A stretch of DNA of 48,632 nt from Acidobacteriota bacterium (lineage in GTDB: Bacteria; Acidobacteriota; Vicinamibacteria; Vicinamibacterales; 2-12-FULL-66-21). Below are positions 11,983-14,920 of this stretch, piece after piece. The translations under genes and the position numbers were made by a program. Each line of letters begins with the position of its first letter. Position 1 is the first letter of the stretch. Under the pieces are notes generated by a model that did no database searches, was not told the DNA's origin, and saw nothing but the letters and a program-made list of their open reading frames with translations. The stretch spans positions 1 to 48,632 of the forward strand of contig JBKPTT010000157.1 in assembly GCA_046735635.1 (NCBI GenBank). Reading direction: 5' to 3'.

Positions 11983-14157
11983 ATGAACCGGACGACCGTT
12001 TTTCCCCGAACCCTGTTGGCGATGACCCTGCTGACCTCCGGCTGCGCAAGCGCCCCACCAGCTCCGGCAGCGCCGCCGGGGATTCCTTTCGACAAGAAGA
12101 TGGCATGGATGCTCGAGCTCGAAGATCGACGAGTGTTGCGACTCGAACCTCCCGCTCCGCCTCCTGCCGTGGCTGCACCCGTCAAAGGACGGCGAGCGGC
12201 TCCGCCCCCGGCGCCCCCGCCGCCCTCCCCGGACCTGACCACGCTATTGTCGGACTCCGAGGCCCGGGTACGGCGCCGAGCCGCGCTCGCAATCGGCCGC
12301 GTCGGTTTGCCTGCGGGCATTCAGCCGTTGATTGGCACGCTGTCGGACGCCGACCCGGAGGTTCGCGAGATGGCAGCCTTCGCGCTCGGGTTGATCGGCG
12401 ACGTGGTGGCCGCGCCGGCGCTGACGAAAGCGCTCGAGGACGTGTCCCCGATCGTCCGCGGGCGTGCCGCCGAGGCGCTCGGTCAGATCGACGCCAAAGA
12501 GAAGGATCAGGTCCAGGCGGAGGCGCGCCGGGTGGTCGGCGACGCCGTCGGAAAAATGGTCGCGGAGTACGCGAAGACTCCCGCCGTCACGGCGATGCAG
12601 GGTGACGATGAGAAGTACCCTGCGGCACCCGAAGCGGAAGCGTTCCGGCTTGGCGTGTACGCGCTCGTCCGTCTCGGCACCTACGAGCCGCTTGCCGCCT
12701 CCGTGCTTGGCGCCGACGGCCAGCCGGTGGCGTCGTGGTGGCCGGTGGCGTACGCATTCGGGCGAATCAGCGACCCGCGGGCCGAGCCGGTGCTGCTGCG
12801 GCTGTTGAAGGCGCCCGGCAAGTATTCCCCTGCGTTTGCCGCGCGTGGCCTCGGGGCCATCAAGGATACGAGCGCCATCGACGCGCTCGTGTCGATGATG
12901 ACCGCGCCGAATACGCCCCAGGAAGTCATCGTGTCGGCGGTGCGCGCGCTCGCTGCGATCGGTGATCCGAAGGCGGCGGCGCCGATTGCGAAGGTTGTGG
13001 CCGCCAGCCCGGACCCGAATCTCCGCATAGAAGGCGTCCGGGCGCTCGGAACGCTGCACGCGTCAGACGGGCTGCTGGTTGTCGAGGACCTCCTGACCGA
13101 TCCGTGGCCCGCCCTGCGCGCTGAGGCCTTGCGGTCTGTCGCAGCGATCGATCAACAGAATCTGCTGCTCGTGCTGTCCGGCATGGACCCCGACCCGCAG
13201 TGGACCGTGCGTGCCGCCCTCGCGGACGTCCTGTCGACCCTGCCCGCGGACGTGGCCCTCGATCGCGTGCGCGCCATGCTCAAGGATGAGGATCGGCGGG
13301 TGGTGCCCTCCGTCCTGCGGGCGCTCGATCGGTTGAAGGCTCCGGATGCGGCGGAGGTCGCGCTCGCGCAGCTGAAAGAACCCGATTTCGTGGTCCGCAG
13401 CGCAGCGGCGGACGTCATCGGCCAGCTGAAACCGGGCGAAGGGCTGGACGCGCTCAGCGCCGCACTTGCGCTGGCCGAGGGGGACGAGGCCATCGACGCA
13501 CGGGTGTCGATCCTTTCAGCGATGGCTGCGTACGGCGGACCACGGGCAATCGACGCCGTCAAAGGAGCGTTGAAGGACAAGGATTGGGCGGTGCGCGTCC
13601 ACGCGCTGGATCTTCTCGCGAAGCTCGACCCGGAGAACGCTTCCCGCGACGCCATCAGGCCGGCGCCCGGGGCCCCGATCACCCCGTATACCGATGCGCA
13701 GCTGATCGCGCCTGCTTACTCGCCTCACGTGTTCATCGAGACGGCGAAAGGCACCATCGAGTTCGAGCTGGCGGTCATGGACGCGCCGCAGACCTCGCGC
13801 AGCTTCATGGCGCTCGTACGCCGAGGGTTTTTCAACGGCCTGCCGATTCATCGCGTCGTTCCGAATTTCGTGATCCAGGACGGCGATCCGCGCGGCGACG
13901 GCGAGGGCGGGCCCGGCTATACGATTCGCGACGAGCTGAACGAACGCCCCTTCCTGCGCGGCACGGTCGGCATGGCGCTCTCGGGGCGCGACACGGGGGG
14001 CAGCCAGTTTTTCATCACGCATTCACCCCAGCCGCACCTCGACGCGCGCTACACGGTATTCGGCCGCGTGGTGAACGGCATGGACGTCGTCGATCGGATT
14101 CAGCAGGGGGACACGATTACGCGCGTGCGCGTGTGGGACGGGACCACGATGCAATAA
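11983..14157 (+). CDS. lipoprotein with N-terminal HEAT-repeat array fused to a C-terminal cyclophilin-type peptidyl-prolyl isomerase
   Basis: Lipobox LLTSGC at the N-terminus. Repeated HEAT-like units (DADPEVREMAAFALGLIGD, DVSPIVRGRAAEALGQID, and others). The C-terminal ~170 aa is cyclophilin (FFNGLPIHRVVPNFVIQDGDPRGDGEGGPGYTIRDE...GGSQFFIT...LDARYTVFGRV). Confidence 0.85.
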   Translation: MNRTTVFPRTLLAMTLLTSGCASAPPAPAAPPGIPFDKKMAWMLELEDRRVLRLEPPAPPPAVAAPVKGRRAAPPPAPPPPSPDLTTLLSDSEARVRRRAALAIGRVGLPAGIQPLIGTLSDADPEVREMAAFALGLIGDVVAAPALTKALEDVSPIVRGRAAEALGQIDAKEKDQVQAEARRVVGDAVGKMVAEYAKTPAVTAMQGDDEKYPAAPEAEAFRLGVYALVRLGTYEPLAASVLGADGQPVASWWPVAYAFGRISDPRAEPVLLRLLKAPGKYSPAFAARGLGAIKDTSAIDALVSMMTAPNTPQEVIVSAVRALAAIGDPKAAAPIAKVVAASPDPNLRIEGVRALGTLHASDGLLVVEDLLTDPWPALRAEALRSVAAIDQQNLLLVLSGMDPDPQWTVRAALADVLSTLPADVALDRVRAMLKDEDRRVVPSVLRALDRLKAPDAAEVALAQLKEPDFVVRSAAADVIGQLKPGEGLDALSAALALAEGDEAIDARVSILSAMAAYGGPRAIDAVKGALKDKDWAVRVHALDLLAKLDPENASRDAIRPAPGAPITPYTDAQLIAPAYSPHVFIETAKGTIEFELAVMDAPQTSRSFMALVRRGFFNGLPIHRVVPNFVIQDGDPRGDGEGGPGYTIRDELNERPFLRGTVGMALSGRDTGGSQFFITHSPQPHLDARYTVFGRVVNGMDVVDRIQQGDTITRVRVWDGTTMQ

Positions 14158-14184
14158 AAAAAGGGGGCGCCGTTCGCCCCCTTT
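14158..14184. terminator. bidirectional intrinsic terminator (HEAT-PPIase gene / micro-ORF copy 1)
   Basis: AAAAAAA GGGGGCG ccgtt CGCCCCC TTT. The 7-bp GC stem is 14163-14169 paired with 14175-14181. The A-run on the plus strand gives a 7-T run on the minus strand, and there is a shorter T-run on the plus strand. Confidence 0.75.
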
Positions 14185-14201
14185 CAGGCGGGAGAGGCAG
14201 C

Positions 14202-14255
14202 TTACCGCTTCTTGCCGCCCTTCTTCTTCCCGCCCTTGGCTGCTTTCTTTGCCAT
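14202..14255 (-). CDS. 17-aa lysine/glycine-rich micro-protein MAKKAAKGGKKKGGKKR (copy 1)
   Basis: Hand-translated: atg gca aag aaa gca gcc aag ggc ggg aag aag aag ggc ggc aag aag cgg taa. SD GGGAGGG lies 11 nt upstream. The terminator hairpin lies ~20 nt downstream. The peptide is identical to the copy at 14462-14515 despite 8 synonymous differences. Confidence 0.7.
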   Translation of the reverse strand: MAKKAAKGGKKKGGKKR

Positions 14256-14410
14256 TGTGCGCTTATCCCTCCCTTCGCTGTGGGATGCCGGTCGCGAGGA
14301 GCTTTCTCCGCGTTGCAGCGCCGCTGCCTGCCGGCACGTCGGCCTGCTTCCGTCGGCGCCCGTCGCCTCTTTGCTGACTCCCGCGCGGGTGGCGAGGGAG
14401 GTTGGCAGCT

Positions 14411-14443
14411 AAAAAATTGGGGGTGTCATCAGTCGACACCCCC
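14411..14443 (-). terminator. intrinsic terminator of micro-ORF copy 2
   Basis: Minus strand reads GGGGGTGTC gactgat GACACCCCC followed by AATTTTTT. The stem is 14419-14427 paired with 14435-14443, and the T-run corresponds to plus-strand A-run 14411-14416. Confidence 0.75.
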
Positions 14444-14461
14444 AGTACTCAGGCGGCGCGC

Positions 14462-14515
14462 TTAGCGCTTCTTGCCGCCCTTTTTCTTTCCACCCTTTGC
14501 AGCCTTCTTCGCCAT
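14462..14515 (-). CDS. 17-aa lysine/glycine-rich micro-protein MAKKAAKGGKKKGGKKR (copy 2)
   Basis: Hand-translated: atg gcg aag aag gct gca aag ggt gga aag aaa aag ggc ggc aag aag cgc taa. Strong SD AAGGAGG lies 5 nt upstream. It has its own terminator and a near-consensus promoter ~90 nt upstream. Confidence 0.75.
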   Translation of the reverse strand: MAKKAAKGGKKKGGKKR

Positions 14516-14609
14516 GAGTTCCTCCTTGGAACTGGCAGCTCAGCTATTTTGACGACCGACGTCGCTTACAACAGGTGGGCTGAGCGGACCACCCTCATAC
14601 AAGATGTAG

Positions 14610-14637
14610 ATTATGGATGAGAAAATTCAACTGTCAA
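14610..14637 (-). promoter_or_regulatory. sigma70-type promoter for micro-ORF copy 2 (TTGACA-16 nt-CATAAT)
   Basis: Minus strand reads TTGACA (14637-14632), a 16-nt spacer, then CATAAT (14615-14610). It sits inside the only strongly AT-rich island of this neighbourhood (about 14600-14690). A second TTGACA and a direct repeat TTTGTGC(N1)TTTGTGC lie just upstream. Confidence 0.55.
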
Positions 14638-14715
14638 GCACAAAGTGCACAAAATGTCAAAAATTCGCACACCTAATCTGTCGGTTGTTCGTCGTCATCA
14701 CGACAGACGTCAATT

Positions 14716-14920
14716 CAGATCGCCGAATGCTGCCGCGCGCCGAATTTTGCGATCGTCGAATGTCGAATCTGATCGTGCAATTGAACATCGTGATTGCGGA
14801 CTGCTCAGTGCGAGTGCGGCATGCCGAGTGCGGTGCGAGCGCTGCTGAGGATCGATTGAGTTTGGCGATTGGCGACGGGGATTGCCGAGCAGGATCGCCG
14901 ATTGGTGATGTGGGATTCAG
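14716..14920. repeat. one-armed low-complexity word array (CGAATG/CGATTG/CGAGTG words, plus-strand orientation)
   Basis: Example stretches: cgccgaatgc, gccgaatttt, cgtcgaatgtcgaatc, gtgattgcgg, agtgcgagtgcggcatgccgagtgcggtgcgag, gatcgattgagtttggcgattggcgac, ggattgccgag, cgccgattggtgatgtgggattc. The vocabulary matches the left arm of the 9650-10146 array. It lies between the TPR gene stop and the micro-ORF promoter. Confidence 0.7.

Follow-up and report, generated by a model that had tools for sequence, protein, structure and literature searches.

The closest described counterparts of the locus reported here are tiny ribosomal proteins, the lysine-rich tails of histone H1/AlgP-type proteins and the leaders of amino-acid attenuators. 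Ribosomal protein bL37, only 24 aa long, buried in a pocket of the 23S rRNA and restricted to Actinobacteria, was found by trying small open reading frames (ORFs) against cryo-electron microscopy density (PMC5876184). Tails of the H1/AlgP type, built of Lys and Ala, bind DNA and associate with polyphosphate or polyhydroxyalkanoate granules (PMC9239181). Here, we describe twin micro-ORFs on the minus strand of an acidobacterial contig of the order Vicinamibacterales (JBKPTT010000157.1, positions 1–48,632; "the window" hereafter denotes this whole 48.6-kb stretch). The two ORFs, at 14515–14462 (copy A) and 14255–14202 (copy B), encode the same 17-residue, highly basic peptide, MAKKAAKGGKKKGGKKR. 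Comparison with relatives argues that both are translated genes kept by purifying selection, that they appear to form one transcription unit with two conserved leader RNAs, and, more tentatively, that their product would act by its charge.

With the tiny ribosomal proteins (bL37, bS22, bTHX and eL41), the peptide shares very short length, very basic composition, restriction to a clade and a history of being overlooked by gene callers (PMC5876184). It differs from them in lacking detectable sequence similarity, in being composed of Lys, Gly and Ala with no internal Arg or aromatics, in its plastic length (12–38 aa) and in its two differently led copies; its presence on ribosomes is, moreover, conjectural. 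An earlier note, made from the letters of this DNA, had likened the peptide to bTHX, bS22 and bL37: the match of size and charge to that class stands, whereas sequence similarity is absent from Pfam, NCBIfam and PDB, so the likeness is one of analogy only, as the note itself had allowed.

The H1-like tails (the KPAA repeats of AlgP and PhaF, and the H1 C-terminal domain) resemble the peptide in their close-set Lys, small intervening residues and variable repeat number, and the Ala-rich relatives (MAKKAKKAAKKAKKAKKR) have the look of a piece detached from one of these tails. Those tails, however, are domains of 150–200 aa joined to a folded N-terminal domain, whereas the entire product here spans 12–38 aa; further differences are the near absence of Pro, the frequent use of Gly for Ala, and the possession of a dedicated promoter, structured leader and terminator. 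The H1/AlgP-type tail is the nearest match in composition, and the tiny ribosomal proteins are the nearest in size and genomic behaviour. Attenuator leaders (his, phe, thr and trp) likewise combine a short ORF rich in the codons of one amino acid with an intrinsic terminator close behind. In the twin arrangement, a second cistron (copy B) also lies past the terminator of copy A. Unlike attenuator leaders, the ancestral form of the locus has no gene downstream to control; consensus folding brought out no antiterminator, and purifying selection acts on the peptide sequence as such.

Distribution among relatives

Homologues of a protein flanking the micro-ORFs place the source in the Vicinamibacterales (Acidobacteriota). 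Five syntenic contigs, fetched through this protein (63–79% identity), all carried twin micro-ORFs in the same gap. Species-representative genomes were then scanned with a DNA pattern for the core GGKKKGGKKR, from which the stop codon was left out. The scan returned at least 119 tiles, about 110 of them from metagenome-assembled genomes (MAGs) of Vicinamibacterales or Acidobacteriota. An unbiased scan of the listed tiles for K-rich micro-ORFs recovered 180 family ORFs in 110 arrays, comprising 70 pairs and 40 singles, with some of the singles cut by tile edges. Among the matches listed, 109 of the 110 arrays occupy the slot between ddl(-TPR) and a convergent peptidyl-prolyl isomerase (PPIase) gene; three tiles are labelled Solibacteraceae, yet show the same synteny. 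Pattern matches in Proteobacteria, Actinobacteria, Segatella, Planctomycetia and a 'Korobacter' MAG lay within long ORFs or had no ORF, and were discarded as chance.

For a sample free of ascertainment by the pattern, 80 metagenome loci were retrieved by the flanking PPIase protein alone, at identities from 79 down to 35%. At PPIase identities of at least 43% and with at least 350 nt of downstream sequence, 49 of 50 loci contained one or two intact convergent micro-ORFs starting with MAKK; in the sole exception (L170), the slot is rearranged. No micro-ORF occurred in any locus with PPIase identity of 38% or less and enough downstream sequence. Altogether, related genomes and metagenome contigs, more than 150 in number, yielded about 260 copies of such micro-ORFs, in a common slot between ddl(-TPR) and the convergent HEAT-cyclophilin gene.

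Coding status of the twin micro-ORFs

The earlier note had proposed that the two ORFs encode an identical peptide and are under purifying selection for a translated product rather than representing a small RNA. Translation confirmed the identity and the composition it had counted (9 of 17 residues Lys or Arg, 4 Gly), with 8 Lys and 1 Arg. Base-by-base comparison likewise recovered exactly 8 nucleotide differences, all at third codon positions and all synonymous (codons 2, 4, 5, 6, 8, 9, 11 and 17), between copies whose 60-nt flanks are unrelated on both sides. Given 10.8 synonymous and 37.2 nonsynonymous sites, the neutral chance of all eight differences being synonymous is ~7e-6. No other K-rich micro-ORF is present in the window. 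The note's expectation that gene callers would miss both copies held in the JGI, ENA and NCBI gene tables, where neither micro-ORF is called on the source contig or the five syntenic contigs, save for one spurious 59-aa call extended at its N-terminus.

Across relatives, all 180 copies start with ATG and stop right after the last basic residue, with TAA, TAG and TGA all in use. Every length variant is in frame, both in the pattern sample (12–22 aa) and across all samples, which hold at least 8 length classes of 12–38 aa; apparent 13-aa forms actually begin at an upstream ATG (MAKKMAKGG...). Entropy at codon positions 1, 2 and 3 is 0.08, 0.03 and 0.57, respectively. In codons 2–7, which lie outside the search pattern, the ratio of nonsynonymous to synonymous change per site (pN/pS) across orthologues is 0.10 for copy A and 0.066 for copy B, at a pS of 0.50–0.64. 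Frame-breaking indels in relatives, which the note had named as a counter-sign, are nearly absent: an ORF-independent fuzzy DNA search found only 3 frameshifted copies, all in error-ridden long-read MAGs. Reading these as pseudogenes was ruled out because ddl, TPR and PPIase next to them are likewise split between frames, which marks the frameshifts as assembly errors.

In the long-read 'MFD' MAG contigs concerned (L068, CAWAZT010000001.1; L018/L058, CAVUTO01), ddl, TPR, PPIase and MR_MLE genes are split over several frames. Such splitting indicates frequent 1-nt indel errors, and apparent pseudogenes in these contigs are untrustworthy.

An antisense frame sharing the wobble positions would mimic three-base periodicity. 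This frame was rejected as the source of the signal: it has no start in 46 of the 180 copies, ranges from 0 to 215 aa, has no common stop and shows a pN/pS about twice as high. Together, the synonymous-only change, kept ATG and stop, in-frame lengths, lack of any credible pseudogene and failure of the antisense frame argue that both ORFs are genuine translated genes maintained by purifying selection, as the earlier note had read them. The least probable account we weighed is a non-coding one, in which the locus would be a purine-rich small RNA or an opposite-strand gene. Such a reading can draw on the structured leader RNAs, on a copy-A transcript that folds more stably as a whole than shuffled sequences (z = -3.85) and on some invariant synonymous sites. 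It conflicts with the three-base periodicity, with the conserved start and variously encoded stop, and with the in-frame length variants. The antisense results tell against it as well, as do the little covariation that involves the ORF and the lack of any Rfam match even at E<=10 beyond the far sub-threshold ones given below.

Peptide family

The sample retrieved through PPIase extends the peptide to a broader family that includes MAKKAKGGKKKAGKKR, MAKKAAKGAKKKAAKKR, MAKKAKKAAKKAKKAKK[R/K] and MAKKAKKAAKKAKKAAKKAKKR, along with forms of 27, 33 and 38 aa and the Ala-rich form given above. What the members share across the clade is a MAKK start and a KKR or KKK end, with ~50–60% Lys in KK or KKK clusters spaced by small Gly/Ala residues. 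Over the length range of 12–38 aa, Lys makes up 47–60% of residues, and between KK clusters only G or A occurs (rarely T, S, V or P). Sequence and length are near-invariant within the order; in the wider clade, lengths of 12–38 aa go together with Gly/Ala swaps. All copies are free-standing from ATG to stop. After removal of Met, the product from the window has 16 residues, AKKAAKGGKKKGGKKR, with a net charge of about +10, flexible Gly/Ala spacers and no hydrophobic residue. Because the motif persists while Gly and Ala interchange freely and length varies, selection at deep divergence is best read as keeping the charge pattern and composition, not the exact sequence.

Database searches returned no relatives outside this family. 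No family in Pfam or NCBIfam matched at E<=10 (variants of at least 20 aa), a profile of 20 variants hit none of 177,635 PDB sequences at the same cutoff, a look-up of the exact sequences in a collection of 15 billion proteins came back empty, and the motif has no match in the searchable full-text literature.

Transcription unit and history of duplication

The twins appear to constitute one transcription unit (Table 1). The earlier note had assigned to each copy its own Shine-Dalgarno (SD) sequence and its own hairpin plus T-run terminator, and had placed a TTGACA-16-CATAAT promoter in an AT-rich island ahead of copy A. All of these were recovered: the SD sequences lie 5 nt (A) and 11 nt (B) before the ATG, the intrinsic terminators, detected at 14444–14418 (A) and 14185–14159 (B), begin 17 nt (A) and 16 nt (B) past the stop codons, and the island has a GC content of 0.46–0.48 vs ~0.68. 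Its description of the twins as stand-alone genes was not borne out, since only the upstream copy A has a promoter, and copy B lies inside the same unit behind terminator A. Between 13500 and 15500, no further sigma-70-like site was found on either strand. TTGACA-N16/17-CCATAAT is kept in all twin lineages and in many single-copy lineages, and terminator A is present with all A copies, its stem pairs being kept in 74 of 74 sequences. For copy B, no sigma-70-type promoter was found in 66 of 69 genomes, and an independent promoter of that kind was rejected on this count. Nor was a sigma-54 promoter supported: the conserved GGCA-N8-TGC scores 7–8 of 12 vs 6–7 in shuffles and falls within the 3' half of the covarying hairpin of the copy-B leader, and a sigma-54-like GG-N10-GC overlapping that hairpin is no better than shuffled sequence.

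A second TTGACA is found at about 14660–14655, 23 nt upstream of the -35 hexamer (minus strand, ~14660–14628: TTTTTGACA-N14-TTTGTGCTTGACA). Relatives keep this arrangement as a whole, in which the second hexamer may belong to a tandem promoter or act as an UP-like element.

Table 1. Coordinates of the micro-ORF unit and its convergent neighbor in the window
Feature	Position	Strand	Remarks
Sigma-70-type promoter of the unit, TTGACA-16-CATAAT	14610..14637	-	11/12 match; inside AT-rich island
Leader of copy A	14516..14609	-	Near-invariant 5' end CUACAUCUUGUAUGAGGGUGG; hairpin P1; SD
Hairpin P1	14594-14573	-	GGGUGG/CCACCU (CCACCY in alignment)
SD of copy A	14527-14521	-	AAGGAGG
Micro-ORF copy A (promoter-proximal; putatively derived)	14462..14515	-	Encodes MAKKAAKGGKKKGGKKR; ATG and stop kept; orthologues in ~100 genomes; pN/pS 0.10 (unconstrained codons)
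Intrinsic terminator of copy A	14411..14444	-	11-bp stem + AAUUUUUU; between promoter and copy B
Leader of copy B	14256..14410	-	No sigma-70 promoter; H1, conserved block, covarying hairpin, G-rich SD
Variable hairpin H1	14400-14378	-	In copy-B leader
Conserved block GCAAAGAGGCGA	14374-14363	-	In copy-B leader, ahead of covarying hairpin
Extended covarying hairpin	14359-14308, core 14347-14315	-	15-20 bp; GCAGGCCGACGUGCC-GGCA-GGCAGCGGCGCUGC
G-rich SD region GAAGGGAGGGAUAA	14276-14263	-	In copy-B leader
SD of copy B	14273-14267	-	GGGAGGG
Micro-ORF copy B (putatively ancestral)	14202..14255	-	Encodes MAKKAAKGGKKKGGKKR; B-type is sole copy in single-copy lineages; pN/pS 0.066
Intrinsic terminator of copy B and whole unit	14156..14185	-	Adjoins HEAT-cyclophilin stop (gene end 14157); kept in relatives
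HEAT-repeat/cyclophilin PPIase fusion	11983-14157	+	724 aa; convergent neighbor of micro-ORF unit

Orthologues differ by 3.5 nt (A–A) and 4.8 nt (B–B), as against 7.3 nt between paralogues within a genome and 7.7 nt between A and B of different genomes. As orthologues are closer than paralogues, the duplication is old, which agrees with the earlier note in denying a recent origin, and the copies have not been homogenized wholesale; wholesale gene conversion is thereby ruled out as the cause of twin identity. The peptides of the two twins are identical in 46 of 70 pairs, and where one twin is a variant in length or 'flavour', the other varies with it (14/14 in 15 cases, 16/16 in 3). This co-variation points to occasional short-tract conversion, which is likely, or to co-selection.

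True single-copy lineages have a unit of the B type. Many of these lineages have the promoter and 5' leader of the twins 155–360 nt upstream, leading directly into the B-type leader, hairpin, SD and ORF. From this layout, the ancestral unit would have consisted of promoter, leader, hairpin, G-rich SD, ORF and terminator; copy B would be the ancestral gene, and copy A with its terminator a later insertion into the ancestral B leader. On such an origin, copy B in the window would be reached by read-through of terminator A.

In some single-copy lineages (L036, 3017–3440; L055, 6333–6770), ~200 nt lacking any K-rich ORF and ending in an intrinsic terminator separate the conserved promoter and leader from the B-type unit. 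Either copy A was lost there or the arrangement is a riboswitch-like leader terminator.

The position of terminator A, between the promoter and copy B in the twins, raises the question of whether translation of the Lys-rich ORF is itself the function. The ORF would then act as a leader-peptide or attenuator-like sensor that responds to Lys-tRNA supply, or to ribosomes stalled on poly-Lys, and thereby sets terminator read-through, with the peptide as a by-product. A short ORF with ~50% Lys codons (8/17), an intrinsic terminator 16–17 nt past the stop, and the conservation at depth of composition rather than sequence are all in keeping with such a sensor. We nevertheless regard it as improbable. 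The ancestral single-copy unit has nothing downstream to control, the 3' end of the convergent gene following in 109 of the 110 arrays listed, and was therefore not an attenuator leader; moreover, consensus folding yielded no antiterminator that involves the ORF. Positions other than Lys are constrained too (MAKK invariant, Gly/Ala spacers only, pN/pS ~0.07–0.10), and the gap between stop and stem would, from its geometry, leave the hairpin clear of a terminating ribosome.

Leader RNAs

The two leaders contain distinct conserved RNA elements. The promoter and the first ~25 nt of the transcript (TTGACA-N17-CCATAATCUACAUCUKGUAUGAGGG) are kept throughout the twin lineages, including those with a diverged peptide, and this motif does not recur elsewhere in the window. 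Hairpin P1 of the copy-A leader is paired in 70–74 of 74 sequences, with G.U<->G-C changes and GGAUGG/CCAUCC variants. Its loop, GCUCAGC (14585–14579), is complementary to an invariant GCUGAGC (14544–14538) just 5' of the SD, so that a pseudoknot is possible; both partners being invariant, it receives no support from covariation. Consensus folding of 74 full units yielded only P1, the terminator and a weak GCGG:CCGC helix between the ORF and the 3' untranslated region (3'UTR). A 10-codon upstream ORF in the copy-A leader (AUGAGGGUGG...) was considered and rejected, as its substitutions are not three-periodic and are read instead as RNA structure.

The 5' end of leader A, CUACAUCUKGUAUGAGGG, is invariant or nearly so, and this leader is more conserved across the clade than the peptide.

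The extended hairpin of the copy-B leader was found by subgroup-wise folding centred on the loop; when one global consensus was folded for the whole leader from an ordinary MAFFT alignment, nothing emerged. With the subgroup-wise structure, 83% of cells are paired vs 27–57% when the partners are slid, and 60 cells are compensatory vs 19.8±4.8 in shuffled data, a value reached in 0 of 500 shuffles; in the main helix, 8 of 13 pairs have changed on both sides. The hairpin could serve as a binding site for a protein or peptide, as an RNase III site or as a stabilizer. In Rfam 15, there are zero matches at gathering score across the whole window, and at E<=10 only far sub-threshold chance matches within 14100–14750. 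The A leader and the B hairpin are thus two conserved RNA elements previously undescribed by any RNA family.

Past the copy-B stop, the segment at 14197–14187 (minus strand; CCUCUCCCGCC) is complementary to codons 8–10 of the ORF (GGCGGGA) and also to the SD. Complementarity between ORF and 3'UTR recurs in relatives with other sequences, such as GCGGC/GCCGC, and such pairing may give a compact mRNA fold.

Proposed function of the peptide

The account that we favor, with slightly less than even confidence in it as a whole, combines the translated twins, their single unit, a product acting by charge and control through the leader. A strong sigma-70 promoter would drive a transcript that begins with the conserved structured leader and continues into copy A, with its consensus SD and its own terminator. 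Copy B would come next, behind the long covarying hairpin and G-rich SD, followed by the final terminator. Copy A and its terminator would have arisen once, long ago, by duplication into the 5' leader of copy B itself, leaving copy B to be reached only by read-through of terminator A. The peptide, in turn, would be an abundant, flexible polycation that acts by charge on a polyanion (rRNA or ribosomes, DNA or polyphosphate) and not a folded protein with one site; it might be likened to a polyamine encoded by a gene, or to a histone-H1/AlgP-type tail without its folded domain. From the length and conservation of the leaders, the peptide level is probably controlled after transcription, possibly by feedback, though feedback of the peptide on its own leader is a guess. 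The near-consensus promoter, the AAGGAGG SD and the two gene copies (present in most lineages) are signals of high expression, which fit a product needed in quantity, and, judging from these features, the peptide is probably an abundant cellular component.

Several points weigh against this account. Within the order, GGKKKGGKKR is near-invariant in ~170 copies (this core being also the search pattern), tighter than selection for charge alone needs. Free poly-Lys peptides can be toxic to cells, and the producer's tolerance of an abundant one is a difficulty. The proposed target is read from the composition of the peptide. In copy A, the synonymous sites of AAG-AAA-AAG-GGC (14488–14477, codons 10–13) are invariant in 28 distinct copy-A sequences, although AAA is a rare codon in this 68% GC genome and copy B has AAG-AAG-AAG there; this suggests an additional constraint at the level of RNA or translation. 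The read-through of terminator A is likewise an assumption, and copy B may use a promoter of an unrecognized type.

The main rival, which we rank below the charge-acting polycation and consider unlikely, is a clade-specific ribosomal or ribosome-associated microprotein sitting in a defined rRNA pocket, with the leader as an rRNA mimic for autoregulation. Its size and charge fit the bL37/bS22/bTHX/eL41 class, and the near-universal presence of the micro-ORF in clade loci (49/50), the strong promoter and SD signals, the long structured leader (as in many ribosomal protein operons) and the near-invariant sequence within the order all speak for it. The ranking follows from the 12–38 aa length range and free Gly/Ala interchange across the clade, which are unusual for a fixed pocket and fit one poorly. 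In addition, the peptide shows no similarity to ribosomal protein families or PDB chains even at E<=10, its sole Arg is C-terminal, it contains neither aromatic nor hydrophobic residues, and the locus is not linked to ribosomal protein operons.

A more specific form of the polycation proposal is possible, if doubtful: a free gene-encoded polycation, a peptide counterpart of polyamines or protamine, would be made in bulk by essentially all members of this dominant clade of soil bacteria and would condense or neutralize RNA, DNA or polyphosphate. A dedicated structured leader RNA of an undescribed kind would set how much of it is made, possibly through direct peptide–RNA feedback and read-through of the internal terminator.

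Few soil bacteria are as abundant as Vicinamibacterales and related Acidobacteriota, which have received little experimental study. In nearly every relative sampled, a peptide of 12–38 residues and a charge of about +10 is under strong selection, yet it was missed by all annotation pipelines and protein databases queried. If it resides on ribosomes, the known ribosomal proteins would gain a new member; should it be a free polycation, it would represent a new bacterial way of managing the charge of nucleic acids or polyphosphate. The locus would also be a clear example of gene duplication into the gene's own 5' leader.

Genomic neighborhood

Upstream of the micro-ORFs and on the same strand lie genes for a TPR protein and D-Ala-D-Ala ligase (ddl); the HEAT-cyclophilin fusion and the synteny with ddl are kept across the clade. 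The N-terminus of the HEAT-cyclophilin protein resembles a lipoprotein signal (…LLTSGC…). These neighbors, a cell-wall gene and a putative lipoprotein, together with the very high positive charge and small size of the peptide, would suit an exported or released cationic peptide with antimicrobial or cell-surface/matrix-binding activity. Such a role is, however, very improbable: the peptide has no signal peptide, no hydrophobic or amphipathic face and no Cys, the conserved neighborhood holds no transporter, protease or immunity gene, and the synteny with ddl is merely positional.

One non-acidobacterial candidate was present among the matches listed. On a Bacteroidetes MAG (NGFH01000001.1; locus L059, 4499–4567, plus strand), a stand-alone 22-codon ORF, MAKKKKAAKKGGKKKGGKKRKK, lies in AT-rich DNA with a downstream hairpin. 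It has no synteny with the acidobacterial locus and may be an analogous microprotein in another phylum.

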